Made by a program: the position numbers and the translations under genes
Shown here: positions 55-37,751 of the stretch, piece by piece
Position numbering within the stretch: position 1 is the first letter of the stretch
Layout of the letters: each line of letters begins with the position of its first letter
Assembly (NCBI GenBank): GCA_030691775.1
Contig: JAUYDN010000240.1
Location: 1-37,863, forward strand
Direction: 5' to 3'
DNA: 37,863 nt
DNA from: Dehalococcoidia bacterium
GTDB taxonomy: Bacteria > Chloroflexota > Dehalococcoidia > Dehalococcoidales > Fen-1064
The notes under the pieces: model-generated
Told to the model about the DNA's origin: nothing
The model's input: the letters and a program-made list of their open reading frames with translations, nothing else
The model's database searches: none

Positions 55-279
55 GAGGGGGCTGCGCCCCCTCATACCCCTGCTATCCACAAACCTTGGA
101 CCCTGAATTGGGTGAGAAGTACTTAGTGCTCTACGTAATAACTGGTAAATGACAACCGAGCACTGATAGCTGATGCTGATTACAGTCTGCTATCATCGTC
201 TTGCGCAATTCCTGAAGACAGTGGTATGCTGATTGTTATTCGTACGTGACGCATTTTTTAATAATCAGGAGGATTAATA

Positions 280-2233: not shown

Positions 2234-2282
2234 AATCAGCGCTCAGCCGTCAACTTATCCTGACTACTGATAGCTTCTTCAT
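2234..2282. repeat. Degenerate heptanucleotide tandem array
   Basis: Reads in register as AATCAGC GCTCAGC CGTCAAC TTATCCT GACTACT GATAGCT TCTTCAT. Confidence 0.45.
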
Positions 2283-4045: not shown

Positions 4046-4726
4046 TTATCCGCTAACTGGCGTATCGGTGTCTTTATGTAAAGATATTTCGTATTTTGCT
4101 ATTTTATCCAGCAACCAGTCTCTTAACTGTATGAGTAACTCACCGTGTGCTTCCCGCAGGAAGTGTCCGTTGTCTTTAAGAATGTATAGCTCCTTCGGCT
4201 CATTAGCCCATTTATAGATGAGACTGGAACACTCGGCCGACAGATTGCGGTCACGCTCCCCATGGATAAGCAAGAGCGGTCGCGGTGATAATATGGCGAC
4301 GTTCTGAGCGCCATAAGTCTGGCTGGAGAGTCCAACTACCGCTTTGACGTTTTGACTCATTGTTCCTGCCTGTATCGCCACCGCCCCACCAAAAGAGTGT
4401 CCCACCAGCGCCACGTTGTTGACTCCCCTCTCCCGGAGAAAATCTATACCCGCAAGCACATCTTGAACACAGTCCTCGAAGTTTCCCGGATGACGGTAGT
4501 GCAAGCGAAGGGAGCTGAACCCGTCCGCAACCATCTGTTGGCTCAAAATCCGGAAAATGCCGAAAGAAGGCCCGTCCAATCCACCCAGCGCGCCGCATAA
4601 CCAGATGATGCCCTTATCTCTCCCGGCGCTGTGGAAAATACATTCGATATCACCGTCAGGCAGTGAGATTATCACCTTTTCCCGGCTACCCTCAAGTTTT
4701 TCGATATGGACAGTTGCCTGTTTCAT
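4046..4726 (-). CDS. Alpha/beta hydrolase (dienelactone-hydrolase-like)
   Basis: 226 aa with the GHSFGG nucleophile elbow and later D and H (NGHF). Its start overlaps the stop of the upstream MFS gene by 4 nt. Confidence 0.75.
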   Translation of the reverse strand: MKQATVHIEKLEGSREKVIISLPDGDIECIFHSAGRDKGIIWLCGALGGLDGPSFGIFRILSQQMVADGFSSLRLHYRHPGNFEDCVQDVLAGIDFLRERGVNNVALVGHSFGGAVAIQAGTMSQNVKAVVGLSSQTYGAQNVAILSPRPLLLIHGERDRNLSAECSSLIYKWANEPKELYILKDNGHFLREAHGELLIQLRDWLLDKIAKYEISLHKDTDTPVSG

Positions 4727-6180
4727 TTTTCGGTGCTCGTTACGGGTTGATTAATCGATTGCGGTAATGCCTTACCGCGTAACATCGACGTAAAAATAGC
4801 GGCCACACAGACGATTGCGGCGATTACCAGAGTGTCCTGGTAGCTGGCTATGAGCGCCAGACGATTGGTCGGAATGGATGCCTGACTCGTTTGAGGAAGT
4901 GACGCAAGATAGACAACCTGGCGGCTGGTGAAAATTGCGCCGGCAATCGCTGTCCCGCTGGAAATACCGATTTGCCTCATCGTGGCAATCATCGCCGAAC
5001 CGGTGCTCAGTCTGTCTACAGGTATAACTCCCATAATCGAACTATTGTTAGGGGAGGAAAAGAGACCGGTGCCGATACCCACCATCATGAGCCGCGGGAT
5101 GATACCGGTGATGCTCGCACCTGCTCCCAGCCGGCTTAACCAGAATAATCCACCGGCTATCAACGCGATACCGGACGTACATAAGAGACGGTAGCCAATT
5201 TTGTCTGAAAGCCAGCCGCTGACCGGTCCAATAATCAGCGCGGACATCGAAACCACAGCGAAAAGCATCCCTGCCTGTGAAGCCGGCAGCGCCAGTCCTT
5301 CGATGAGATAAAACGGCATAAGAAAAGTGTTGGCGGTAAGGCCGATAAACATTATGACAAGCGACACGTTTCCAGCGGCAAATAGCCGGTTACGGAACAG
5401 GTTAAGGTCCAGGATAGGAAACTTTACCCGCTTTTCCAGGATAATAAACGAACCAATCAATATCACTGCTCCGGCCGCAAGGGATAGTACCGGAGCGGTA
5501 CCAAAACCGTTCTTCCCACCGATGTTGAAGAAGAGCAAGAAACAAGCGAGCGCGCCGGAGAGCGTAAGTGCCCCTGCCCAATCGAACCGGAAGCCGGCTA
5601 ACGTGGCTTTTTGCTCCCTGAGAAGTATTGCCGCCATCACCAGCCCTGCTATGCTCACCGGAATACGGACATAGAAAATGGATTGCCAGTCCAGCAAATC
5701 CACCAGCAGTCCGCCGAGCACAGGACCGGATAGAAGTCCTGCGGACACCACGGCTCCAAGGATACCAAGCGCTTTGCCCCGTTCATGGCTCGGAAATGCG
5801 CCGGTCACAATCGCCGTGCTCAAAGAGACCACCATCGCCGAGCCTACCGCCTGGACGACACGCGCCAGGATAAGCTGGACGATGCTCTGGGAAAGGGAGC
5901 AAAGGGTCAACCCAACTGTAAATACCGCAAACCCGATGACGTAGTTACGCTTCCTGCCCAGCATATCGCCGAGTTTACCGAAACTGAACATCAGGCTCAC
6001 ACTGATGAGTAAATAAATAACCGAAACCCATAGTACCGTTGAAGCATCCGTCTGAAAAACCTTCGCCAGCCTCGGTAATGATATGTTAACGATACTCGCA
6101 TCCAGCGTGCCCATATAGGTGCCGATGGAAACGGTGATGAGAGCCAGCCATTTATAAGGGATGCCTTTTTTCTCTGCCAC
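4723..6180 (-). CDS. MFS transporter, DHA2/EmrB-like (14-TMS type)
   Basis: Long hydrophobic ORF containing LDASIVNISLPRL and GKLGDMLGRKR motifs. I prefer GTG 6180, which is preceded by AGGAGG (6185-6190). Alternative starts are ATG 6207 and TTG 6240 (the ORF-track start). Confidence 0.8.
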   Translation of the reverse strand: MAEKKGIPYKWLALITVSIGTYMGTLDASIVNISLPRLAKVFQTDASTVLWVSVIYLLISVSLMFSFGKLGDMLGRKRNYVIGFAVFTVGLTLCSLSQSIVQLILARVVQAVGSAMVVSLSTAIVTGAFPSHERGKALGILGAVVSAGLLSGPVLGGLLVDLLDWQSIFYVRIPVSIAGLVMAAILLREQKATLAGFRFDWAGALTLSGALACFLLFFNIGGKNGFGTAPVLSLAAGAVILIGSFIILEKRVKFPILDLNLFRNRLFAAGNVSLVIMFIGLTANTFLMPFYLIEGLALPASQAGMLFAVVSMSALIIGPVSGWLSDKIGYRLLCTSGIALIAGGLFWLSRLGAGASITGIIPRLMMVGIGTGLFSSPNNSSIMGVIPVDRLSTGSAMIATMRQIGISSGTAIAGAIFTSRQVVYLASLPQTSQASIPTNRLALIASYQDTLVIAAIVCVAAIFTSMLRGKALPQSINQPVTSTEK

Positions 6181-7235: not shown

Positions 7236-7280
7236 AGTTTCCTCTCTCCCTTGAGGGGTCTTGCCTCAAAAGTCGAGTGA

Positions 7281-7385
7281 CCCTGTCACCCTGACCCCGA
7301 TGAAAATCGGGGGAAGGGTCTCCCTGCCTGCTGAGTAGCGTCGGAGATTCTTCGTTCGCCCGACTCCGTCGGACTCCTCAGAATC
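7281..7385 (-). repeat. Composite intergenic repeat (GTCATTCTGAG / GAAGAATCTC family), copy left of plsY
   Basis: Aligns over about 105 nt with the reverse complement of 8471-8586. The shared string is ...tcgggggaagggtctcc.tgcct.ctgagtag...ggagattcttcgtt. Confidence 0.6.
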
Positions 7386-7440
7386 TCGTATGTCTCGTGC
7401 CAAAGAACACCACGAAGTATGAAAAACCCTGCCTTTCTTT

Positions 7441-7490
7441 GTCATTCCCGCCCCCGTATCCAGTACGGGGCAAGCTCCGAGCGGGAATCC
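7441..7490 (+). repeat. GTCATTCCCG...CGGGAATC hairpin element (family copy 2)
   Basis: gtcattcccgc + ccccgta-tccag-tacgggg hairpin + ...gagcgggaatcc, preceded by CACCACGAAGTATGAAAAA (7408-7426). Its translation gives the VIPAKAGIQ-type pseudo-peptide seen in ORF 7266-7688. Confidence 0.5.
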
Positions 7491-7688
7491 AGGCGCATTC
7501 CCCACCCTCTGGATACCAGCCTTCGCTGGTATGACATTTGGGGGAGCTCCCTTTTTTTCATAGTAATCCTCCATGCCTGTTTTACAAAGGGCACCACGAA
7601 GGATGAAATTAGCGTATTTTCGGGGTAATGACACCTGGGGCAACACCCCTTGATGAGAGAGGCAGGGGGGTGAGGGTGTTAAAGTCAA

Positions 7689-8315: not shown

Positions 8316-8470
8316 ACAGTATATCCGGGAAAACGATGTTGATAGTTGAGAATAAAATATTCTGCAAATTCTGTCAATGGCATTCTTATCGGGGCATCCG
8401 CGAAACTAAAATAAACGCAGGGAAAAGTCCCTCCAGCCCCCGTTCAGGGTAAACCGGCGTTGCCTCAAAT

Positions 8471-8586
8471 GTCATTCTGAGTCCCGATGCTTCGGTACGA
8501 AGCATCGGGAGAACGAAGAATCTCCAGCACCTACTCAGTAGGCACGGAGACCCTCCCCCGACAGGTCGGGGCTCAGGTTGACAAGG
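8471..8586 (+). repeat. Composite intergenic repeat (GTCATTCTGAG / GAAGAATCTC family), copy right of plsY
   Basis: gtcattctgag + a perfect 13-bp hairpin tcccgatgcttcg-gta-cgaagcatcggga + gaacgaagaatctcc + ...ccccgac-ag-gtcgggg. It is an inverted homologue of 7281-7385. Confidence 0.6.
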
Positions 8587-8602
8587 ATACATTGGAGTTT
8601 TA

Positions 8603-9289
8603 GTGCAAAGCCCAAATGGGGGACAAGAGGGGGTTTTTGACGTGTTACTCAACATCTACGAACGCCTTTTTGCCCTCTACGGTCCCCAGCACTGGTGGCC
8701 CGGTGATTCTCCCTTCGAGGTAATGGTCGGCGCAATACTGACGCAATCAGCCGCGTGGCAGAACGTGGAAAAAGCCATCCGCAACCTGAAAACAGCCGGC
8801 ACACTTTCCCCACAAGCCCTGAGTCAGTTACCTGTTGAAGAAATCGCCCGGCTCATCTATCCGAGCGGCTACTACAATGCCAAGGCGCGCAAGCTCAAGG
8901 CGCTGGTAGAGTGGCTGGGAGAGGCGTGCGGTGATGACATTGGTAAACTCTCGGGGATAGAAACTGATGAACTGCGGAGGCAACTGCTTGCCGTCCACGG
9001 GGTGGGACCGGAAACCGCCGATTCCATCCTGCTTTACGCTCTCGGTAAGCCCGTATTTGTAATCGATGCCTACACCCGGCGCATCATGTTCCGGCTCGGG
9101 CTGGTGGGAGAAAAAACCAGCTACGAAAAGCTACAGAAATTGTTCATGGACAATCTTCAACCGGACGTACAGTCGTTCAACGAATACCATGCCCTGCTCG
9201 TCCGGCTGGGGAAGACGGTCTGCCGCAAGCAACCCCTGTGCCGGGAGTGCCCTTTGTTTGACATCTGCCCATCCAATGAGGCAAGATAG
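8603..9289 (+). CDS. Endonuclease III-related HhH-GPD domain protein with C-terminal Fe-S cluster loop
   Basis: YGPQHWWPGDSPFEVMVGAILTQSAAWQNVEKAI, HGVGPETADSILLYA (HhH) and CRKQPLCRECPLFDIC. The start is uncertain (GTG 8603). Confidence 0.75.
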   Translation: MQSPNGGQEGVFDVLLNIYERLFALYGPQHWWPGDSPFEVMVGAILTQSAAWQNVEKAIRNLKTAGTLSPQALSQLPVEEIARLIYPSGYYNAKARKLKALVEWLGEACGDDIGKLSGIETDELRRQLLAVHGVGPETADSILLYALGKPVFVIDAYTRRIMFRLGLVGEKTSYEKLQKLFMDNLQPDVQSFNEYHALLVRLGKTVCRKQPLCRECPLFDICPSNEAR

Positions 9290-9296
9290 GATAATA

Positions 9297-9833
9297 ATGT
9301 TTATCGGTCTCGTCTCGGATACACACATCGCCTGGCCTGAGCAGTCCTGGCCCCCTCAAATCAAAGAAAAACTCCGCGGAGTCGACCTGATTCTCCACGC
9401 GGGTGATATCTGGATTTCCTGGGTTCTCGATGAGCTATCCACCATCGCGCCGGTGCTTGCCGCCCAAGGCGATGATGACATGGAAGCGGACATCGGCAAC
9501 GACCCGCGTATTGTCAAGCGGCAAGTCCTCTCCTACGAGGGCGTCAACCTGTGGGTCCAGCATATCAAGCCGCGCTACGGACAAATTAACCCGGCATATC
9601 AGGTGAACTATTACACAACCCAGAACCGGCAAGCACCCACCGAACCAGCGGAGGTGCCGGATGTGGTTGTGTTCGGGCACAGCCATTTCGCGGAAATCGA
9701 AGACTTCAAAGGCATCACCCTCATCAATCCGGGCAGTCCCACCCTGCCTCAATATCTCCCCAGGCTGGGAACGGTTGGTTTGCTCACCCTGAAAGACGGC
9801 AAAGTAGACGCCAGACTGATTCCGCTGGAATAG
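9297..9833 (+). CDS. Metallophosphoesterase, YfcE/MJ0936 family
   Basis: MFIGLVSDTHI, ILHAGDI, VVFGHSH and INPGSPT motifs. ATG 9297 lies 8 nt after the upstream stop. The ORF-track extension to 9066 overlaps the previous gene. Confidence 0.8.
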   Translation: MFIGLVSDTHIAWPEQSWPPQIKEKLRGVDLILHAGDIWISWVLDELSTIAPVLAAQGDDDMEADIGNDPRIVKRQVLSYEGVNLWVQHIKPRYGQINPAYQVNYYTTQNRQAPTEPAEVPDVVVFGHSHFAEIEDFKGITLINPGSPTLPQYLPRLGTVGLLTLKDGKVDARLIPLE

Positions 9834-9945
9834 TTTTCAGTTTACAGTCAACAGCTCACAGTTTCCAGAAGCTCTCTGGTTGTTTTCTACTGATAACTTA
9901 TTACTGTTTACTATTTACTGATGACTGTCTACTATCTACTGCCCT
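9834..9945. repeat. Heptanucleotide tandem arrays (16 consecutive 7-nt units)
   Basis: TTTTCAG TTTACAG TCAACAG CTCACAG TTTCCAG AAGCTCT CTGGTTG TTTTCTA CTGATAA CTTATTA CTGTTTA CTATTTA CTGATGA CTGTCTA CTATCTA CTGCCCT, all in register. Confidence 0.75.
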
Positions 9946-9987
9946 CCCCCCTTGCACAAACACCCCGAATCAAGTAAAGTCACTGGT

Positions 9988-11343
9988 ATGGAAAAATCGC
10001 GTACCGTTTTTGTTTGTGAGTGCGGCTACCGCAGTGTCTTCGAGCTGGGGCGCTGTCCCCAGTGCCACCAATGGCATAAATTTACCCGGCAGGTAGAAAT
10101 AGAACCCACATCGCCGGCACGACCGCGCACCTCTACAAGTGGTCCTGAAGAGCTTTCACAGGTCAGTCTCCAGGCCGCCGAACGCTTTCCCGTAGCGATG
10201 TCCGAGTTCAACCGCGTGCTCGGCGGCGGGATTGTACCCGGTTCACTGGTGCTTATCGGTGGGGAGCCGGGGATTGGCAAATCGACTCTGCTTTTACAGG
10301 TCGCGGCGCTTGTGGCGCAGGCGCGGGGTAATGTCGTTTACGTTTCCGGGGAAGAGACCGCCGCCCAGATTAAACTGCGCGCCAACCGGCTCGGCGTCCG
10401 CGGTGAAAGTCTTTACCTGCTCTCCGAGACCGATATCGCCGCGATGCTGGAACACATGGAAAGCATGGAGCCGGGCTTGCTCATTATCGATTCTATCCAG
10501 ACCACCCATACCCCGGAAGATGACGGCGCGCCAGGTTCTATTACCCAGGTGCGTGAATCGGCGCAGAGACTAATGCGCTGGGCAAAGTCGACAGGCGTGC
10601 CGGTATTCATCACGGGACATGTTACCAAAGAGGGTAATATCGCCGGTCCCCGTATGCTCGAGCATATCGTCGATGTCGTTCTCTACCTGGAGGGCGAACA
10701 GTTCAGTGCCTATCGCTTGCTTCGCTGTGTCAAGAACCGCTTCGGCTCCACCAACGAGGTTGGCATATTCGAAATGAAAGAGAAGGGGCTAATCGAGGTG
10801 GAGAACCCCTCGAAGGCATTTATTTCGCAAAGGGAAGGGGGGCTGGTTGGTTCGGTGGTGGTACCGGTGATTGAAGGGAGCCGCCCTCTTCTCGTGGAAA
10901 TCCAGGCGCTTACCAACCCGACGAGCTTCGGGATGCCGCGCCGCACTGCCAACGGCGTTGATTTCAACCGTCTGCTGATGATTATTGCCGTGTTGCAGAG
11001 ACGGTTAGGCTTAAAGCTGGGCAACCAGGACGTGATGGTGAACGTCACCGGCGGGCTGAAGATTGACGAGCCGGCGGCAGACCTGGGCATTGCCCTGGCA
11101 ATTGCCTCGAGCTGTCAGGATGCGCCTGTGGATGTGGGGCTGGTGGCGGTAGGTGAGATTGGTTTGAGCGGCGAACTGCGGTCGGTGGCACAGATAGACA
11201 GGCGGGTGACGGAAGCGGCGCGGATGGGCTTCACACGATGCCTGGTGCCTTCGGCGGGAGAAAAAGTCACAGCCCCGAAGGGCATTGAAGTCAACGCGGT
11301 GAGCAGTGTGCGGGGGGCGGTGGAGCAGGGGTTGAAGAAATAA
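9988..11343 (+). CDS. radA: DNA repair protein RadA/Sms
   Basis: N-terminal Zn finger CECGYRSVFELGRCPQCHQW, Walker A GGEPGIGKST, KNRFG motif and a Lon-like C-terminal domain. ATG 9988 gives the canonical N-terminus (the ORF-track start is TTG 9952). Confidence 0.9.
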   Translation: MEKSRTVFVCECGYRSVFELGRCPQCHQWHKFTRQVEIEPTSPARPRTSTSGPEELSQVSLQAAERFPVAMSEFNRVLGGGIVPGSLVLIGGEPGIGKSTLLLQVAALVAQARGNVVYVSGEETAAQIKLRANRLGVRGESLYLLSETDIAAMLEHMESMEPGLLIIDSIQTTHTPEDDGAPGSITQVRESAQRLMRWAKSTGVPVFITGHVTKEGNIAGPRMLEHIVDVVLYLEGEQFSAYRLLRCVKNRFGSTNEVGIFEMKEKGLIEVENPSKAFISQREGGLVGSVVVPVIEGSRPLLVEIQALTNPTSFGMPRRTANGVDFNRLLMIIAVLQRRLGLKLGNQDVMVNVTGGLKIDEPAADLGIALAIASSCQDAPVDVGLVAVGEIGLSGELRSVAQIDRRVTEAARMGFTRCLVPSAGEKVTAPKGIEVNAVSSVRGAVEQGLKK

Positions 11344-11932: not shown

Positions 11933-12081
11933 GGTAGTTTCATAATAGAGGACAAAACGACAAGTATCAAGTAACAAGCGTCAATTAAAAAATTACGGTG
12001 TTCTACTATAAAGACCCCCAGGAACACAATTGCCCAATAGAGATTCGTCGCGCTTCGCTCGTGATGACAGTAGGAAGAGAT

Positions 12082-12130
12082 GTCATTCCCGGCCCCGCAA
12101 CTAGTGCGGGGCAGGCTTTGAACGGGAATC
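12082..12130 (+). repeat. GTCATTCCCG...CGGGAATC hairpin element (family copy 3)
   Basis: gtcattcccg + gccccgca-actag-tgcggggc hairpin + aggctttgaacgggaatc. Further nested hairpins follow to about 12220 (attccagc...gctggaat, ccccgta-ctctga-tacgggg, gccgat-tac-atcggc). Confidence 0.5.
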
Positions 12131-12242
12131 TACATACATCCTTCTACTTCTGGATTCCAGCCGGAGTTTACCCCGTACTCTGATACGGGGCTGGAATCGG
12201 TCATGCCGATTACATCGGCACCACGAAATATAAAAATCGGGG

Positions 12243-12397
12243 TTGTCATTCTGGAGCCCTTCATAATCGCTCAGGGTAAACTCCGCGAAGAATCTCAGAG
12301 AGGGGTAGGCGACCCCATGATTCAACTCCCCTCCTCCAGATTCTTCGTCGTCCCGATAAGGAATAAAGGAATTATCGGGACTTCTCCAGAATGACAA
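12243..12397. repeat. MITE-like palindromic element, 155 bp, terminal inverted repeats TTGTCATTCTGGAG / CTCCAGAATGACAA
   Basis: Perfect 14-nt TIRs at 12243-12256 and 12384-12397, an internal GAAGAATCT / AGATTCTTC inverted pair, and a 10-bp hairpin gtcccgataa/ttatcgggac. Same family as 19164-19275. Confidence 0.65.
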
Positions 12398-12473: not shown

Positions 12474-12506
12474 ATCAAAAGAAAAGGGGAGCGTTTTCCG
12501 CTCCCC
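12474..12506 (-). terminator. Rho-independent terminator after rpsI (end of the r-protein superoperon)
   Basis: 8-bp GC-rich stem (12486-12493 ggggagcg / 12499-12506 cgctcccc) with a 5-nt loop. On the minus strand it is followed by TTTTCTTTTG. The plus-strand side is also T-rich, so it may be bidirectional. Confidence 0.6.
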
Positions 12507-12523
12507 CGTCTTTCGTTTGTTCT

Positions 12524-12579
12524 ATTTTATGTTTAGTTATTGTTTCGGATTTCGATATTGGTGATTCGGATTTCGTGCC
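12524..12579. repeat. Degenerate heptanucleotide tandem array
   Basis: ATTTTAT GTTTAGT TATTGTT TCGGATT TCGATAT TGGTGAT TCGGATT TCGTGCC. Confidence 0.55.
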
Positions 12580-13029: not shown

Positions 13030-13061
13030 ATCCTCCCTTTTTAGCAAACTGCCGGTAATGA

Positions 13062-13124
13062 GTTAACAGTTAACAGTTTTTGGTTATTCGATATTAGGTA
13101 TTCGATATTAGACATTAGATATTT
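13062..13124. repeat. Heptanucleotide tandem array (9 units) running into the last codons of rplM
   Basis: GTTAACA GTTAACA GTTTTTG GTTATTC GATATTA GGTATTC GATATTA GACATTA GATATTT. It contains the 20-mer GATATTAGACATTAGATATT, which is identical to 22916-22935. Confidence 0.7.
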
Positions 13125-13527
13125 TCTTCGGATAGGGATGGTCCGCGCCGGCAAAAATCCGGAGCCTTTTCATCATGCTGGCATTCAACCGGTTCCGTGG
13201 CAACATGCCCTTGACCGCATGCTCGATAACACGCTCCGGAGTCTGTTCCATTTGCTTTTCCAGGCTCACCTGCTTGAGGCCGCCCGGGTACTGCGAATGC
13301 CGGTAGTACATCTTCTGCACCGCTTTTTTGCCGGTGAAGCGTACCTTGCCCGCGTTGATAATCACTACAAAATCACCGACATCCATATTGCGGACGAACA
13401 TCGGCTTGTGTTTGCCGGAAAGCAGTGTGGCGGCACGGGTCGCCACTTTACCCAGGATTTCATCTCCGGCATCGATTACATGCCATTCACGTTTGATATC
13501 GCTTGCTTTGACACTATAGGTTTTCAT
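13108..13527 (-). CDS. rplM: 50S ribosomal protein L13
   Basis: MKTYSVKASDIKREWHVIDAG... is a canonical L13 N-terminus. The ATG overlaps the truA stop by 1 nt. Confidence 0.95.
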   Translation of the reverse strand: MKTYSVKASDIKREWHVIDAGDEILGKVATRAATLLSGKHKPMFVRNMDVGDFVVIINAGKVRFTGKKAVQKMYYRHSQYPGGLKQVSLEKQMEQTPERVIEHAVKGMLPRNRLNASMMKRLRIFAGADHPYPKKISNV

Positions 13528-14701: not shown

Positions 14702-14719
14702 ATTCCACCTTAAGTAATT

Positions 14720-14789
14720 GGCAGTTAGCCTTCAGCTTTCAGCAGTCAGAGATTATTTGATTACCGATAGCTGACGGCTAGCAGACGAT
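14720..14789. repeat. Degenerate heptanucleotide tandem array in the rpoA-rplQ spacer
   Basis: GGCAGTT AGCCTTC AGCTTTC AGCAGTC AGAGATT ATTTGAT TACCGAT AGCTGAC GGCTAGC AGACGAT. Confidence 0.55.
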
Positions 14790-19058: not shown

Positions 19059-19079
19059 ATTTTCCCTAAGTCATAACCT

Positions 19080-19121
19080 CGATAAATCCGAAGCACGAAT
19101 GTCGAATTTCGAAAAAATTTG
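19080..19121. repeat. Degenerate heptanucleotide tandem array
   Basis: CGATAAA TCCGAAG CACGAAT GTCGAAT TTCGAAA AAATTTG. Confidence 0.5.
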
Positions 19122-19163
19122 TCACGGCGCCGTGGCGCCGCCCACGAACAATGAAAATGGAGG

Positions 19164-19275
19164 TGTCATTCTGGAGCGAAGCGAAGAATCTCAGGGAAGG
19201 GCTATTTTCCCCCGCCACCAGATTCTTCGTCGTCCCGATAAAGTACAGGAGGGTCGGGACTCCTCCAGAATGACA
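19164..19275. repeat. MITE-like palindromic element, 112 bp, TIRs TGTCATTCTGGAG / CTCCAGAATGACA, inside the secY-adk spacer
   Basis: Perfect 13-nt TIRs, an internal GCGAAGAATCTCAG / CCAGATTCTTCG inverted pair, and the hairpin gtcccga...tcgggac. It is preceded by CCACGAACAATGAAAATGG. Same family as 12243-12397. Confidence 0.65.
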
Positions 19276-19297
19276 AGATAGAATCCATTTTCTACGT

Positions 19298-19381
19298 AAA
19301 TTCCAAAATCCAATTAACAAATGTTTCAAGCCTTTAGATTTACCTAATTTTTTCATTACTTCGGATTTCGAACTTGACTCC
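19298..19381. repeat. Degenerate heptanucleotide tandem array
   Basis: AAATTCC AAAATCC AATTAAC AAATGTT TCAAGCC TTTAGAT TTACCTA ATTTTTT CATTACT TCGGATT TCGAACT TGACTCC. Confidence 0.5.
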
Positions 19382-19413
19382 CCGTTATATGATTTGGAGT
19401 CAGTAAAAGTATT

Positions 19414-22271: not shown

Positions 22272-22823
22272 CTATTTTCTCCCTATTGCCTTTCCAGCTT
22301 TACCCGGTTTGAGACGCACCGGCACGCCGGCTAAGCGCAACCCTTTGCCCTTGTACGGGTCGTGCGGTTTAATAGCTAAAATCTTCGCGGTCACTTCGCC
22401 CACCAGCTCCTTATCGATGCCAGCGATTTTGAGGCGGTTGACGCCTTCGACGTTGAACGTCACGCCCGCCACCGGTTTCAGTTCCACCGGGTGCGAGTAG
22501 CCAACGTTCAGCACAATTTTATCCCCGGTCTTCTGGGCGCGGTAACCAACGCCGACAATCTCCAGCGTCTTCTCGAAACCCTTGTTGACACCCTCCACCA
22601 TATTCGCCAGCAGGGCGCGACTGAGACCGTGCAGTGCGCGTGCTTCACCGGTATCATTGGCACGGGTGACGACGAGGCGGTCGTCCTCCAGTTTCACCGT
22701 GATAACATCGACAAAACGCCGGCTCAGCTCGCCCCTGGGACCTTTCACGGTCACCGAGCTATCTTCAACCTTGACGGATACCCCTTTAGGTACCGGTATT
22801 GGCAAACGCCCGACTCGAGACAT
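22272..22823 (-). CDS. rplF: 50S ribosomal protein L6
   Basis: MSRVGRLPIPVPKGVSVKV...VTVKGPRGEL is canonical L6. Confidence 0.95.
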   Translation of the reverse strand: MSRVGRLPIPVPKGVSVKVEDSSVTVKGPRGELSRRFVDVITVKLEDDRLVVTRANDTGEARALHGLSRALLANMVEGVNKGFEKTLEIVGVGYRAQKTGDKIVLNVGYSHPVELKPVAGVTFNVEGVNRLKIAGIDKELVGEVTAKILAIKPHDPYKGKGLRLAGVPVRLKPGKAGKAIGRK

Positions 22824-22834
22824 AACTTTAATAA

Positions 22835-22942
22835 AATCCTAAATTCTAAACTCTAAATCCTGAACAAACTCAAAACGTTTATAGTATCTCAGGTTTCGGA
22901 TTTTGATATTGTTTAGATATTAGACATTAGATATTAGAATTT
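22835..22942. repeat. Two heptanucleotide tandem arrays in the rpsH-rplF spacer
   Basis: 22835-22876 reads AATCCTA AATTCTA AACTCTA AATCCTG AACAAAC TCAAAAC. 22894-22942 ends ...AGATATT AGACATT AGATATT AGAATTT. It contains the 20-mer shared with 13104-13123. Confidence 0.7.
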
Positions 22943-22960
22943 ACCCCTTTCCTCGCTTTT

Positions 22961-23359
22961 TTACCAGATGTAACAGATTAGCTCTCCGCCGATTCCCTGC
23001 TTCCAGGCTTTTTGCCCGGTCATCAACCCTTTGGGAGTGGAGAGGATAGCGACGCCGAGCCCGCTATAGACACGCGGAATTTCTTTTTTCTGGACGAAAA
23101 TCCTCAATCCCGGCTTGCTGACACGCTCCAGACCGGTCAGGACCGACTGGTGCCGTTCCTGGTATCGGAGTTGGATTTTAATCACCTTTTGAGGTTTGCC
23201 TCGGACAACCTCATAGTCCTTGATAAAGCCTTCTTCCTTAAGAATTTTGGCGATTGCCAGCTTCATTTTAGAAGAAGGCACGAGTACCGAATCGTGCCGT
23301 GCGAGCACGGCGTTCCGTATTCGGGTCAGCATATCTGCAACTGGGTCTGATATTGTCAC
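22961..23359 (-). CDS. rpsH: 30S ribosomal protein S8
   Basis: [17 protein letters not shown]... is canonical S8. Confidence 0.95.
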
Positions 23360-24817: not shown

Positions 24818-24835
24818 GTTAATCCACCCTAATTA

Positions 24836-24898
24836 CAGTTATCAGTTATTAGTTATTAGACATTAGACATTGGATATTAATATTGTTATTGTTATTTG
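24836..24898. repeat. Heptanucleotide tandem array (9 units) in the rpsQ-rplN spacer, overlapping the rpsQ stop
   Basis: CAGTTAT CAGTTAT TAGTTAT TAGACAT TAGACAT TGGATAT TAATATT GTTATTG TTATTTG. Confidence 0.75.
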
Positions 24899-25467: not shown

Positions 25468-25915
25468 CGGTCGCTAGCTCCTTGCTTTTTGCTGTCCCGA
25501 AGAGGGAAGCTTTACGGATGACAAACCTGGTGGGCACAGGCAATTTGTTGGAGGCAAGCCGCATGGCTTCCTTTGCCAATGCCTCGTCTACACCACCCAT
25601 CTCGAACATAATCCGGCCGCGCTTGACCACGGCAACCCAGTGGTCGGGTGCGCCTTTACCGGAGCCCATACGGGTTTCTGCCGGTTTCTTGGTCACGGAC
25701 CTGTCCGGGAAAACGCGTATCCAGACCTTACCGCCACGGCGGATATGATGGGTGATGGCGCGTCGTGCCGCCTCAATCTGGCGGGCGGTCAGCCACACAG
25801 ACTCCAATGCCTGCAATCCGTAGTCCCCAAACGCCACGGTATCGCCGGAATGCGCGGCACCCTTACGCCGTCCCTTATGAAATTTCCTGAATTTAACACG
25901 TTTAGGTTGTAGCAT
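25457..25915 (-). CDS. rplP: 50S ribosomal protein L16
   Basis: [19 protein letters not shown]... is canonical L16. Confidence 0.95.
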
Positions 25916-27083
25916 TGCCTTCTCCCTGCTTCGCTGCAGTTTCAGCTGTTGCCACCGGTTTTTCTGCGGTCTCCTCCGCCTTTGGTTTAGCCGCTGCCGG
26001 GCGGGTTACTCTGCGCGCGGGTGCTTTTGGTTTTTCCTCACCGGTTCCTTCAGCCGTAGCTTCACCGGCAGGTTTAGCGCGGGTCACCCGGTGTGCGGGT
26101 GCTTTTGGTTTCTCTTCCGCCGCGTGTGCCGGAGCCGTTTCGCTTGCCTTCGGAGCTTCTACCGTCGTCCGTGGACGCGGTGCTCTCCTTACCGGCTTTG
26201 GTTTTTCTTCTGCCGCAAGTGCCGTAGCCGTTTCGCCTGCCTTCGGAGCTTCTACCGTCGTCCGTGGACGCGGTGCTCTCCTTACCGGCTCTGGTTTTTC
26301 TTGTGCGGCTGGTGCGGCGACAGGCTGTTCTCCCACCGGCTTTGCTTCCACTGGTGGGGTTTCCGTAACCGCGATTGCTACTGCAGGGGCGGCTGTTTCC
26401 GCGGCAGGAGTGGATATTGCCTGTGGTGCCGGGGTAGCCGTTTCTACCTCTTCCTTCTCCGGCAGAATGTCACCTTTGTAAACCCAGACTTTCACGCCGA
26501 TGCGTCCCATAACGGTGCGTGCTTCTGTAAACCCGTAATCGATATCGGCGCGGATGGTATGCAGTGGCACACGCCCTTCGTGCATAATAACGCGGCGGGC
26601 GATTTCCGCCCCATCGAGGCGGCCGGCACAGCGGATTCTCATCCCCTTGGCGCCTGCCTGGATGGTGCGTTGCATCGATTGTTTCATCGCGCGGCGGTAG
26701 GCAACACGGCGTTCCATCTGGTCCGCCACCGAGCGGGCTACCAGAAAAGCATCTAGCTCCGGTTGCTGGATTTCCCTTATGTTAAGTTGAATTCGCTTGC
26801 CGATAAGCTTTTCCAGTTTAGAGCGCATTTCATCAACCCGCTGGCCGCCACGCCCGATAAGTATGCCGGGCCGCGCGGTATGGATGGTGAGGGTAACATT
26901 ATTAGCCTGGCGGTCAATCTCTACCTGGGAAACCCCGGCTTCCGGATACATCGACCGGAGAGTCTTGCGGATTTTCAGGTCCTCCTGGAGATAGGCGACA
27001 AAATGTTTATCCGCATACCACTTGGCGTCCCACGGCTTGATGATGCCAACCCTGAAACCAACGGGGTGAACCTTATGTCCCAT
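25902..27083 (-). CDS. rpsC: 30S ribosomal protein S3 with ~183-aa repeat-containing A/P/E/K-rich C-terminal extension
   Basis: [24 protein letters not shown]..., KH domain ILIGRGG. The conserved core ends near residue 210 (DNA ~26453); the tail runs to 25905. Confidence 0.95.
26134..26319. repeat. 93-bp tandem duplication inside the rpsC tail (31-aa protein repeat)
   Basis: Copies 26134-26226 and 26227-26319 share about 80 nt with only 3-4 mismatches. They encode EKP(E/K)[17 protein letters not shown](G/S)ETA... twice. A second, looser ~78-bp repeat (EEKPKAPA[HR]RVTR) lies at about 26014-26125. Confidence 0.85.
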
Positions 27084-33804: not shown

Positions 33805-34269
33805 TTAAATTATCTTCTCCAATTTCTCAAATATGGCTTTACAGTGTCTATGGCAAGCCTTAATTTCGATTAAAGTCATATTGGAAGAGCTTCCATGAGC
33901 AACAGCGTTTTTATTTGTCACAATATTATTTAAACCCGTTTTAGCTTTGTAAGGGATTCTCTTATTCATAGCTACCACCCACTTTTTACTGAACCGTCCG
34001 AGTATTGTCGTCAGATTGTCCCAGTTCGGGTTTCTGAGTTGTAGATCCAGAGTTTTTTCAACAAATGTCTTAATCTCAATATCACCGCTCTTAGCCGCCC
34101 TTTTGTTAAGGAGATGCTCAAAGCAGTCCTCGTACGCTCCCGATATTAAAACCACCAGATATGACACAAGATCAGCAATTATTTTGCTGTCACCTTTAAA
34201 TCTTTCTATTCGATTGATAGTTTCCTTTATGAAAAGGAATTTGTCACGAACATATTGCTCTCGTATCAT
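33805..34269 (-). CDS. Small helical protein with HEPN-like (RNxxAH-type, Arg->Lys) motif; partner of the DUF262 gene
   Basis: 154 aa from ATG 34269, which lies 1 nt after the upstream stop (157 aa from TTG 34278, overlapping it by 8 nt). NKNAVAHG is encoded at 33895-33912 near the C-terminus. The coding sequence is AT-rich. Confidence 0.6.
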   Translation of the reverse strand: MIREQYVRDKFLFIKETINRIERFKGDSKIIADLVSYLVVLISGAYEDCFEHLLNKRAAKSGDIEIKTFVEKTLDLQLRNPNWDNLTTILGRFSKKWVVAMNKRIPYKAKTGLNNIVTNKNAVAHGSSSNMTLIEIKACHRHCKAIFEKLEKII

Positions 34270-34270
34270 T

Positions 34271-35317
34271 TCACCCAAACAACCCCTGTTGCGCTAACTT
34301 AATTCTTTGTTTAACCGTATCTACGTCTGTAGTTGAGCTAGAAACATATCTATCAAAGGAATCATTATTCAGTAATTTCCTATACTGTTCTCTGAGGTCT
34401 AACTTTCTATTAAGCAGATTGTGGTAGAATGCCACCATAACAGAATCGCAAATAGCGGCATTTAGACCACGCTGTCGGTGGAATGGTTTAGAGTCCAATG
34501 TTTCAACTACATAATTAACAGCGCCCTCGAAGTTGCTTCGGTATTTTTCAAAACGCTCTTTATTGTTTCGATTTTCTTTCATAAAATCCGTCAAAAAATC
34601 AGTCATTGGTTTATGATATCGATCGCCGTTCTCCGCTAATGCCAGTGTCCTCAGCACTAATTCCACATCTCTGTATCTCTTGTCCACTACAGCACTGCCT
34701 AGTATGACTCGCCAGTTCGGAATACTATTTAATTCCATTAGGAATTTACTAAATTCTCCATGGTATAAAGCATTTCTGATTTCCTGAGAATTTAAGGTAG
34801 TGCCTCCAGTATTAAGCCTTTTGAAGATGTGGTACATACTTGTGTTATCTTTAGGATCCAACTGTTCAATAATAATGGTCCTTAGCACCGCATCTCTAAG
34901 CCGTATCTTGTCGGCGCTATTTAACTGACTGAAAACAAGTCCCTCCCAGACCGCCTTAACCTTTCTAAGTGAAAATCTTTGGCGCGTGTCAGGAAATTCT
35001 TCTGCAAAGTATCCGAATACGCTTCGTAATCTTTGTTGTCCGTCGACCACAAGTAATCTCTGAGTATCGCTCTCTCTATAAAGGAACAAGGGAGGAACAG
35101 GGAGACCTAGGAGAAATGATTCGATAAGACTGCTAGCTTGGTTGATAGTCCATACAAAGCGTCTTTGAAACGGAGGAACGAATATTTCTTCCGATATCCA
35201 CTTATCATAAAGACCTTGGAGAGTATAATCAGCCGGATAAGCTGCTATCTTATAGCGCGATACATCTTCCTCTGCATCGTCTCTCTCAGACTTGATTTGC
35301 TCAATTTTAACTGTCAT
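34271..35317 (-). CDS. DUF262 (ParB/GmrS-like N-terminal domain) protein without a recognisable nuclease domain
   Basis: FQRRFVW, VVDGQQRLRS (DGQQR at 35030-35044) and FKRLNTGGTTLNSQEIRN motifs. ATG 35317 is preceded by GAGGTGA with a 5-nt spacer (the ORF-track start is GTG 35326). Confidence 0.8.
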   Translation of the reverse strand: MTVKIEQIKSERDDAEEDVSRYKIAAYPADYTLQGLYDKWISEEIFVPPFQRRFVWTINQASSLIESFLLGLPVPPLFLYRESDTQRLLVVDGQQRLRSVFGYFAEEFPDTRQRFSLRKVKAVWEGLVFSQLNSADKIRLRDAVLRTIIIEQLDPKDNTSMYHIFKRLNTGGTTLNSQEIRNALYHGEFSKFLMELNSIPNWRVILGSAVVDKRYRDVELVLRTLALAENGDRYHKPMTDFLTDFMKENRNNKERFEKYRSNFEGAVNYVVETLDSKPFHRQRGLNAAICDSVMVAFYHNLLNRKLDLREQYRKLLNNDSFDRYVSSSTTDVDTVKQRIKLAQQGLFG

Positions 35318-35348
35318 TGGACTCACCTCTCGTATCGGTCGCGATGCA

Positions 35349-36879: not shown

Positions 36880-37751
<872 letters not shown>

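Follow-up and report, generated by a model that had tools for sequence, protein, structure and literature searches.

Heptanucleotide repeat arrays in intergenic spacers and in the ribosomal-protein operon of a Dehalococcoidales genome

Tandem repeats of a seven-nucleotide unit have been described from several bacterial groups. The direct repeat TAACTGA is present in marine Beggiatoaceae, some Cyanobacteria and Bacteroidetes (MacGregor 2015, PMC4679880), where it mostly points toward a nearby start codon, occurs within ribosomal-protein operons and, in some species, is interspersed with heptamers of related sequence. It often replaces the ribosome-binding site before the start codon, Cyanothece strains differ by insertions and deletions of the repeat in 7-nt steps, and S1, cold-shock proteins and CsrA have been proposed as its binders (PMC4679880). 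Arrays of GGGAATC in Xanthomonas and of GGGGAYT in Nostoc include inverted arrays and differ widely between close relatives (Rehm et al. 2015, PMC4692102). As cited in the same work, Mrazek et al. (2007) reported a general excess of heptameric repeats in bacteria and hypothesised polymerase slippage over 7 nt (PMC4692102), and a Nostoc preprint describes how deletion of heptamer repeats near recO modestly affected the expression of a reporter. A literature search returned no paper combining Dehalococcoidia with heptamers. Here we describe heptamer arrays in a 37,863-nt contig of a Dehalococcoidia bacterium of the order Dehalococcoidales (GenBank assembly GCA_030691775.1, contig JAUYDN010000240.1, forward strand), which was analysed at its full length and is called the window below. 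The arrays belong to a known class, heptanucleotide simple-sequence repeats with TAACTGA-related units; they are found here in a further lineage, within the Dehalococcoidales, and inside its ribosomal-protein operon.

A gene map of the window was assembled from open reading frames (ORFs), Pfam hits and the order of the ribosomal-protein genes, which left an intergenic remainder of 3658 nt. The lag-7 self-match of this intergenic DNA was 0.321, as opposed to 0.255 in dinucleotide-preserving shuffles (z = 8.4), and lags 14 and 21 gave echoes of the period (z = 4.1 and z = 3.3, respectively). The coding DNA of the window had a lag-7 match of 0.245 and no period-7 signal. An autocorrelation of intergenic against coding sequence had been suggested as a check by the original prediction, a reading of the bare sequence that described the spacers as degenerate period-7 arrays, and the excess that it called for is present in the window. 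Sliding windows of 35 nt reached a match of at least 0.6 in 162 cases at lag 7, 28 at lag 6 and 21 at lag 12, and in none at lags 4, 5, 8, 9, 10 and 11. The segments found in this way at lag 7 were 9826-9959, 13049-13134, 14707-14759, 22823-22878, 22887-22962 and 24821-24891; a further segment, 4706-4750, was rejected as an array and proved to be coding sequence, rich in T, where two genes meet. Tandem Repeats Finder assigned period 7 or 14 to nine of the 12 non-redundant arrays in the window. Because a 7-nt unit is not divisible by 3, heptanucleotide long simple sequence repeats (LSSR) are expected mainly outside coding sequence.

The region first flagged, 9834-9945, reads in a 7-nt register as it had been described. 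When this and the other regions listed with it were tested singly against dinucleotide shuffles, lag 7 was the best lag in all 11, but only some of them proved strong. Seven segments had p <= 0.001 (9834-9868, 9883-9945, 13062-13124, 14720-14789, 22835-22876, 22894-22942 and 24836-24898) and every one of them is located in a gap between genes, while five that had been picked by eye were weak, with p 0.005-0.02 (163-197, 2234-2282, 12524-12579, 19080-19121 and 19298-19381). The accompanying statement that arrays cover most non-coding gaps longer than about 50 nt, apart from those taken up by palindromic repeats, proved overstated. Among the 15 gaps of at least 50 nt, arrays dominate five (56-96% of the length), one contains a borderline array and nine contain none above the threshold.

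Strong arrays lie within the ribosomal-protein operon, where each spacer is named here by the two genes that it separates:

13048-13124, minus strand: L13-S9 array; lag-7 match 0.73, z 7.0; unit family D1; identical in Logan contigs from two sequencing runs.
14707-14789, minus strand: RpoA-L17 spacer, two opposed heptamer arrays forming a predicted hairpin; lag-7 match 0.48, z 3.9.
22835-22876, minus strand: S8-L6 array nearest the L6 start, sense units CAGGATT, TAGAGTT, TAGAATT, TAGGATT; lag-7 match 0.63, p 0.001.
22894-22942, minus strand: S8-L6 distal array; lag-7 match 0.64, z 4.1; unit families D1 and D5.
24836-24891, minus strand: S17-L14 array; lag-7 match 0.86, the highest in the window; nine copies in Tandem Repeats Finder; identical in Logan contig L162.

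Read in the sense direction, the L13-S9 array is made up of AAATATC, TAATGTC, TAATATC, GAATACC, TAATATC, GAATAAC, CAAAAAC, TGTTAAC and TGTTAAC, and it overlaps the final 17 nt of rplM. The S17-L14 array runs through CAATGT, CTAATGT, CTAATAA, CTAATAA, CTGATAA and CTGTAAT into the Shine-Dalgarno (SD) sequence AGGGTGGA. Similarly, the proximal arm in the RpoA-L17 spacer (CTGACTG, CTGAAAG, CTGAAGG, CTAACTG) extends up to the SD AAGGTGG. In the S8-L6 spacer the distal array consists of AAATTCT, AATATCT, AATGTCT, AATATCT and AAACAAT followed by a unit of a second family, ATCAAAATCCGAAA, and the array at 22835-22876 is its complement-type partner.

The weak arrays are distributed over the operon and other gaps:

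163-197, plus strand: array before a flavin oxidoreductase gene, units CTGATAG, CTGATGC, TGATTAC, AGTCTGC, TATCATC; lag-7 match 0.46, p 0.022.
2234-2282, plus strand: mixed array 3' of the oxidoreductase stop codon; lag-7 match 0.43, p 0.016; below the sliding-window threshold.
12524-12579, minus strand: array in the 3' region of S9, units CGAAATC/CGAATCA; lag-7 match 0.49, p 0.015; unit families D5 and D6.
19080-19121, minus strand: CGAAATC-family heptamer stretch within the SecY-Adk spacer; lag-7 match 0.46, p 0.018; unit families D5 and D6.
19298-19381, minus strand: second heptamer stretch in the SecY-Adk spacer; lag-7 match 0.43, p 0.0045.

The sense consensus of the array at 163-197, CTGATAC, agrees with CTGATAA at six of seven positions, and a promoter-like CTTGCG-N17-TATGCT can be read in the sequence immediately downstream. 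A strong terminator hairpin (12485-12507) is located downstream of the weak S9 array. Taken together, the arrays are found upstream of a -35 element, between cistrons up to a retained SD (S17-L14, RpoA-L17) and in a 3' region before a terminator, and contexts as unlike as these argue against one dedicated function. Consensus promoter hits within the ribosomal spacers were not in excess (15, as against 10.6 ± 3.7 in shuffles), and no covariance model of Rfam 15 matched a spacer at its gathering score, the sole hit in the window being the tRNA at 36880-36952. A TAAAGT beside the L6 start was rejected as a -10 element because it is too close. Elsewhere in the window, the promoter-like TTGATA-17-TATTAT of queF is overlapped by CTTGTTA, CTTGATA and CTTGTCG (11942-11978, minus strand), with alternative -35 hexamers 7 bp apart.

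The arrays resemble the TAACTGA system in their tandem 7-nt intergenic units, in the unit CTGATAA, which is a rotation of TAACTGA, in the admixture of related heptamers, in a sporadic phylogenetic distribution and in their position inside ribosomal-protein operons (in the window L13-S9, RpoA-L17, S8-L6 and S17-L14). They differ in that the host is a member of the Chloroflexota outside the published list, the arrays are degenerate and the dominant unit of the ribosomal spacers is CTAATAT/CTAATGT. Furthermore, SDs are mostly kept 3' of the arrays, and the array first flagged is located upstream of a promoter and not beside a start codon. Two or more exact TAACTGA units in tandem are not present in the window; the one exact in-array copy, at 24842 on the minus strand, has neighbouring units that are one mismatch off. 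With other bacterial heptameric LSSR the arrays share a lineage-specific intergenic 7-nt excess, a favoured unit per genome, inverted pairs, differences in spacer length and array sequence between relatives and a proposed slippage origin. Unlike these, the window units are A/T-rich and incapable of forming G-quadruplexes, and they are set in an essential and normally compact operon.

The STRR repeats of heterocystous cyanobacteria were the only analogue named in the original prediction, which also held that the gene content and order do not look cyanobacterial. STRR likewise form tandem heptanucleotide arrays at many intergenic sites of one genome, but the window arrays are shorter, more degenerate and found in a Dehalococcoidales host. 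The units of STRR1-3, CCCCAGT, TTGGTCA and CAACAGT, are not arranged in tandem in the window, which contains isolated copies only and zero copies of CAACAGT. HIP1 sites (GCGATCGC) are absent from the window as well, and the nearest radA loci in species-representative genomes all belong to metagenome-assembled genomes of Dehalococcoidales/Chloroflexota (83%, 80%, then 61-68% identity), all of which agrees with a host that is not cyanobacterial. STRR are therefore an analogue of the same general kind, and the TAACTGA repeats (PMC4679880) and the heptameric simple-sequence excess (PMC4692102) are closer. If this reading is right, the range of heptamer arrays, with units akin to the unexplained TAACTGA repeat among them, would extend to the Dehalococcoidales (Chloroflexota).

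The flagged spacer separates a metallophosphoesterase gene from radA and contains the following features:

9834-9868, plus strand: distal array, TTTTCAG, TTTACAG, TCAACAG, CTCACAG, TTTCCAG; lag-7 match 0.68, z 4.1; period 7 in Tandem Repeats Finder.
9865-9885, plus strand: terminator-like hairpin CCAGAAGCTCTCTGG followed by a T-run, between the two arrays; a pattern match only, from a consensus scan.
9886-9943, plus strand: proximal array, about eight units nnACTRn; lag-7 match 0.62, z 4.7.
9952-9990, plus strand: putative radA promoter and start, with -35 TTGCAC (9952-9957), a 17-nt spacer, -10 TAAAGT (9975-9980), 7 nt and ATG at 9988.

The units of the proximal array (CTACTGA, TAACTTA, TTACTGT, TTACTAT, TTACTGA, TGACTGT, CTACTAT and CTACTGC) constitute a degenerate TAACTGA/CTGATAA array in which ACT is invariant in 8/8 units and whose 3' limit is a C-run adjoining the radA -35 element. 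The distal array is its reverse-type, CAG-anchored partner. A TTGnnn-17-TAAAnT-6/7-ATG/GTG layout was found upstream of radA in 23/23 Dehalococcoidales loci (the window and L002-L023). As the promoter thus precedes the start codon by 6-7 nt in all of them, the radA mRNA is very probably leaderless, and this arrangement is probably conserved across Dehalococcoidales loci, the transcription start being one predicted from the promoter layout. Judged from the sequence, the proximal array occupies the position of an UP element and lies outside the radA mRNA unless transcription reads through from upstream. A role of the arrays as unstructured A/U-rich mRNA linkers, one of the functions suggested earlier, is a misfit at this locus, where the proximal array precedes the -35 element of a promoter predicted to be leaderless.

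A co-occurring strain represented in run SRR13727536 allowed us to compare this spacer at close range. In its radA contig (L001), 10/16 differences from the window fall inside about 50 nt of array sequence, and in its metallophosphoesterase contig (L165) 9/9 aligned differences lie inside the spacer before radA, while the genes flanking the spacer are 99.7-100% identical. The spacer is hypervariable at the strain level, and the comparison indicates that it turns over far faster than its surroundings. In the distal array of L165, three substitutions are grouped in one unit and spare the CAG.

The Logan contigs L001, L162 and L165 tend to stop within or beside arrays, which marks the arrays as hard to assemble and would fit an artefact of assembly or sequencing limited to this contig. 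Nevertheless, the arrays were reproduced in independent Logan assemblies. Contig L162, from run SRR13727536, departs from the window sequence at 3/3294 positions and contains an identical S17-L14 array and an identical sequence for the covered part of S8-L6; contig L163 (run SRR29054611) differs at 16/2502 positions, and its L13-S9 and S9 3' region arrays are identical. Over the two runs, the S17-L14, L13-S9, RpoA-L17 and S9 3' region arrays and part of S8-L6 were recovered, which excludes an assembly artefact. Comparable arrays in unrelated metagenome-assembled genomes and metagenome contigs point the same way, so that an artefact, the outcome that the original prediction had named as speaking against it, is effectively refuted. 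On the practical side, heptamer arrays fragment short-read assemblies and can produce spurious ORFs.

For a comparison of orthologous spacers, 80 metagenome contigs with a ribosomal operon were fetched through L5, and the 30 closest (64-88% L5 identity) were compared with the window. Looking up the exact L6 protein yielded no contig. The S17-L14 spacer measures 15-30 nt in relatives versus 74 nt in the window. For S8-L6 the length is 7-22 nt in 29/30 relatives and 78 nt in one contig, versus 137 nt. The SecY-Adk spacer is 8-11 nt long in 14/18 relatives and 38-141 nt in four, versus 355 nt, and RpoA-L17 is 33-39 nt long in the three closest relatives that cover the junction, versus 94 nt. Since the related operons have short spacers, the arrays are recent, lineage-specific additions and not ancestral regulatory elements. 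Upstream of radA the unit number and content differ between relatives. The two closest have only 2-3 CTAAnnn units, relative L007 has AGATTTA units, and at the matching position relative L021 carries a near-perfect TAACTGA array of five exact and three near-copies. Variation of unit number among orthologous spacers had been put forward beforehand as a mark of slippage; the related operon spacers are short and lack arrays, and the units before radA differ. A compact and essential ribosomal-protein operon can evidently take up 50-350 nt of repeats between cistrons where relatives keep about 20 nt. The same genes with and without arrays form a natural comparison between neutral slippage products and regulatory platforms, a choice that also applies to STRR and TAACTGA.

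In Dehalococcoidales radA loci, no tandem period is more frequent than 7 (11/37 arrays), which is rare in Bacilli (4/43) and absent in high-GC Dehalococcoidia (0/48). Among 159 metagenome ribosomal-operon spacers of at least 45 nt, 17 have period 7 compared with 1.35 expected from shuffles, which exceeds any other lag, and these 17 are concentrated in 8 contigs. Genomes either abound in heptamer arrays or lack them, a pattern that matches published surveys. Inter-cistron heptamer arrays, frequently paired in inverted orientation and as many as 5-6 in one contig, were observed in contigs L144, L145, L150, L159, L099 and L114, whose L5 is 60-69% identical to that of the window; their start-proximal units include CTGATAG, CTGAACC, CTAAAGA and CAACTAA.

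The arrays are probably heptanucleotide simple-sequence repeats that were produced by slippage and unit turnover and are tolerated as spacer filler, in some cases forming hairpins. We infer slippage as the generating process and no dedicated function. The arrays would have originated recently in this Dehalococcoidales lineage, within spacers that were originally short. Slipped-strand mispairing at replication would duplicate a 7-nt unit, a length of about 7 nt being favoured by the polymerase according to the published hypothesis, and later gain, loss, replacement and point mutation of units would lead to the "mutational walk" between neighbours. Arrays would persist where the length of a spacer is free, that is upstream of promoters, between cistrons before the SD and in 3' regions. 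They would have no single conserved function, and any local consequences would be secondary, such as DNA rich in A/T where the radA promoter would have an UP element, unstructured RNA poor in G before some ribosome-binding sites, or hairpins where two arrays oppose. Slippage had already been considered as the origin in the original prediction, and it fits the short array-free spacers in relatives, the variation upstream of radA and the strain differences in the flagged spacer.

Several observations weigh against this explanation. Family D1 is common to 13078-13123, 22904-22949 and 24833-24878, with the sense units CTAATAT, CTAATGT and CTAATAA all in one orientation, and includes a 20-nt exact match (13104-13123 and 22916-22935) with a related third copy at 24847-24878. 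The sense-strand motif TCGAAATCCGAA of families D5 and D6 occurs at four places and also in relatives L007 and L016. CTGATAA-type units recur in the arrays before radA, before the oxidoreductase gene and in S17-L14. The claim that the arrays have different drifting unit sequences is not confirmed in that form, as several arrays share unit families, and the units are not arbitrary. Arbitrary slippage fails to explain why three ribosomal spacers contain the same units in the same orientation with a 20-nt exact match, and slippage alone fails to explain why CTGATAA/TAACTGA turns up in the window and also in relative L021 and unrelated phyla. The L13-S9 and S17-L14 arrays are identical between strains that are 0.1-0.6% different elsewhere, so that not all arrays are hypervariable. 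With two runs available, no direct unit-number polymorphism was seen at the ribosomal spacers and no clean polymorphism in 7-nt steps. Finally, all 7 strain differences within units of the proximal radA array miss the ACT core, a hint of constraint.

Two other explanations retain a small probability, mainly because units are common to spacers and phyla. In the first, arrays or short seeds spread by copy-and-paste, as a tiny mobile or gene-conversion-driven element, and then expand locally. The exact match of 20 nt and its related copy are in line with such spread, as is the presence of the TTCGGATTTCGA motif of D5 and D6 at four places, and the possibility that TAACTGA spreads horizontally or as a mobile element was raised by MacGregor (PMC4679880). 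An 18-nt motif, TGCTCTACGTAATAACTG, adjoins the array before the oxidoreductase gene in the window (127-144) and the radA array in the co-occurring strain (L001 14-31); its two sites, which would suit copying, may represent a dispersed module or a rearrangement. In contrast, array borders showed neither terminal inverted repeats nor target-site duplications, nor a transposase, and a favoured heptamer with one variable position can yield long exact matches without transposition. Moreover, the ribosomal spacers read as heptamers from stop codon to SD, as expected from expansion in place. Copy-and-paste spread is considered improbable.

The second explanation views the arrays as a multivalent platform for a single-stranded nucleic acid-binding protein, either one cold-shock-domain protein per heptamer or S1, that tunes downstream translation or RNA stability, a role that has been proposed for TAACTGA in Beggiatoaceae. 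In its favour, several spacers share unit families that keep one orientation with respect to transcription, and the sense strand is G-poor (4-11% G) in the radA, L13-S9, S17-L14 and S8-L6 distal arrays. The S17-L14 and RpoA-L17 arrays stop within a few nucleotides of the SD, the ACT core of the radA array is invariant and is missed by the strain differences, and the published TAACTGA repeats likewise occur inside ribosomal-protein operons and point to start codons (PMC4679880). The orientation of the start-proximal array was scored over 21 ribosomal-operon spacers. CTRA exceeded TYAG in 9 of them and the reverse applied to 5 (p = 0.42), so that the strong forward bias seen by eye was not established; G/C skew across the same 21 spacers gave no signal. 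By spacer, the S17-L14, RpoA-L17 and radA arrays are forward and the S8-L6 array nearest the start is reversed, and some arrays are opposite in orientation or located in 3' regions. Mismatches were not significantly uneven over the seven unit columns in any array (p 0.12-0.70; radA array p = 0.12), and a conserved core within the unit is not claimed. In addition, the array first flagged precedes the -35 element of a promoter predicted to be leaderless and is hence outside the radA mRNA, and close relatives lack arrays in the same spacers, so that regulation of this kind is not conserved. A binding platform is regarded as unlikely, with somewhat more in its favour than copying has. A broader version, in which TAACTGA/CTRATNN arrays would be a cross-phylum cis-element (Chloroflexota, Gammaproteobacteria, Cyanobacteria, Bacteroidota) that binds one OB-fold protein per 7 nt of single-stranded nucleic acid, spreads between spacers and tunes ribosomal-protein operons, with inverted pairs looping on themselves to hold SD and start together, is a speculation that we consider doubtful.

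Two opposed arrays are present in each of three spacers, RpoA-L17, S8-L6 and the radA spacer. The RpoA-L17 hairpin has a minimum free energy of -29.4 kcal/mol (z -3.66; 0/200 shuffles as good). The S8-L6 arms (22835-22876 with 22908-22942) are predicted to pair in register, with 5-bp helices every 7 nt, although the fold is marginal (z = -1.8, or -1.35 with flanks), and the radA spacer fold is similar (z = -2.0). The L13-S9 and S17-L14 RNAs gave no structure (z about 0). In the S8-L6 spacer (22824-22960, minus strand) an SD-like GAGGAAAGGGG directly follows the S8 stop codon and is separated from the L6 AUG by about 120 nt, and no good SD is found near the AUG, where relatives have GAGGAG 8 nt upstream. 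The SD-like sequence, taken to be ancestral, immediately precedes the stem, the AUG follows about 10 nt after it, and the predicted hairpin would restore the displaced GAGGAAAGGGG to about 11 nt from the AUG. In phage T4 genes 25 and 38, a hairpin between the Shine-Dalgarno sequence and the start codon restores their spacing; the likeness concerns one spacer and a prediction whose fold is unconvincing against shuffles.

These folds bear on the view that the hairpin of two inverted arrays is the functional unit, acting in RNA processing, stabilisation or termination, or looping a displaced SD to the start. The stability of the RpoA-L17 hairpin, the in-register S8-L6 arms flanked by the SD-like sequence and the AUG, and the recurrence of inverted heptamer pairs in metagenome contigs L099, L145, L150 and L159 are consistent with it. 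The marginal S8-L6 and radA-spacer folds, the unstructured L13-S9 and S17-L14 arrays and the relatives without hairpins all argue against it, and this view is held to be very improbable.

Other features of the window were noted as well. The SecY-Adk spacer (19059-19413, 355 nt), in the middle of the ribosomal operon, has heptamer-like stretches on either side of one palindromic repeat element. Palindromic families resembling miniature inverted-repeat transposable elements (TGTCATTCC...GGGAATC, and TGTCATTCTGGAG...CTCCAGAATGACA with AGATTCTTCGTCGTCCCGA) fill the long gaps at 2391-2482, 7343-7608, 8504-8525, 12080-12397 and 19154-19276. The ORFs 7266-7688, 8386-8655, 12101-12397 and 19066-19356 overlap or adjoin these palindromic repeats and match no Pfam entry; they probably do not represent genes. 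S3 is 393 amino acids long (25902-27083, minus strand), and its extension past the Pfam S3 domains, which reach to about residue 201, holds 2.2 tandem units of 93 bp (31 amino acids) and shorter related repeats (26104-26306); close relatives also have a long S3, and in more distant ones about 210 residues align. A gene with a GmrSD_N domain and a RiboL-PSP HEPN gene, a defence-like pair (33805-35326), are situated immediately upstream of the ribosomal operon at its S12 end. An ORF of the phage-integrase family (36891-37751, minus strand) runs with its 3' end into a tRNA-Phe gene (36880-36954, plus strand), an overlap that suggests the edge of an integrated element.

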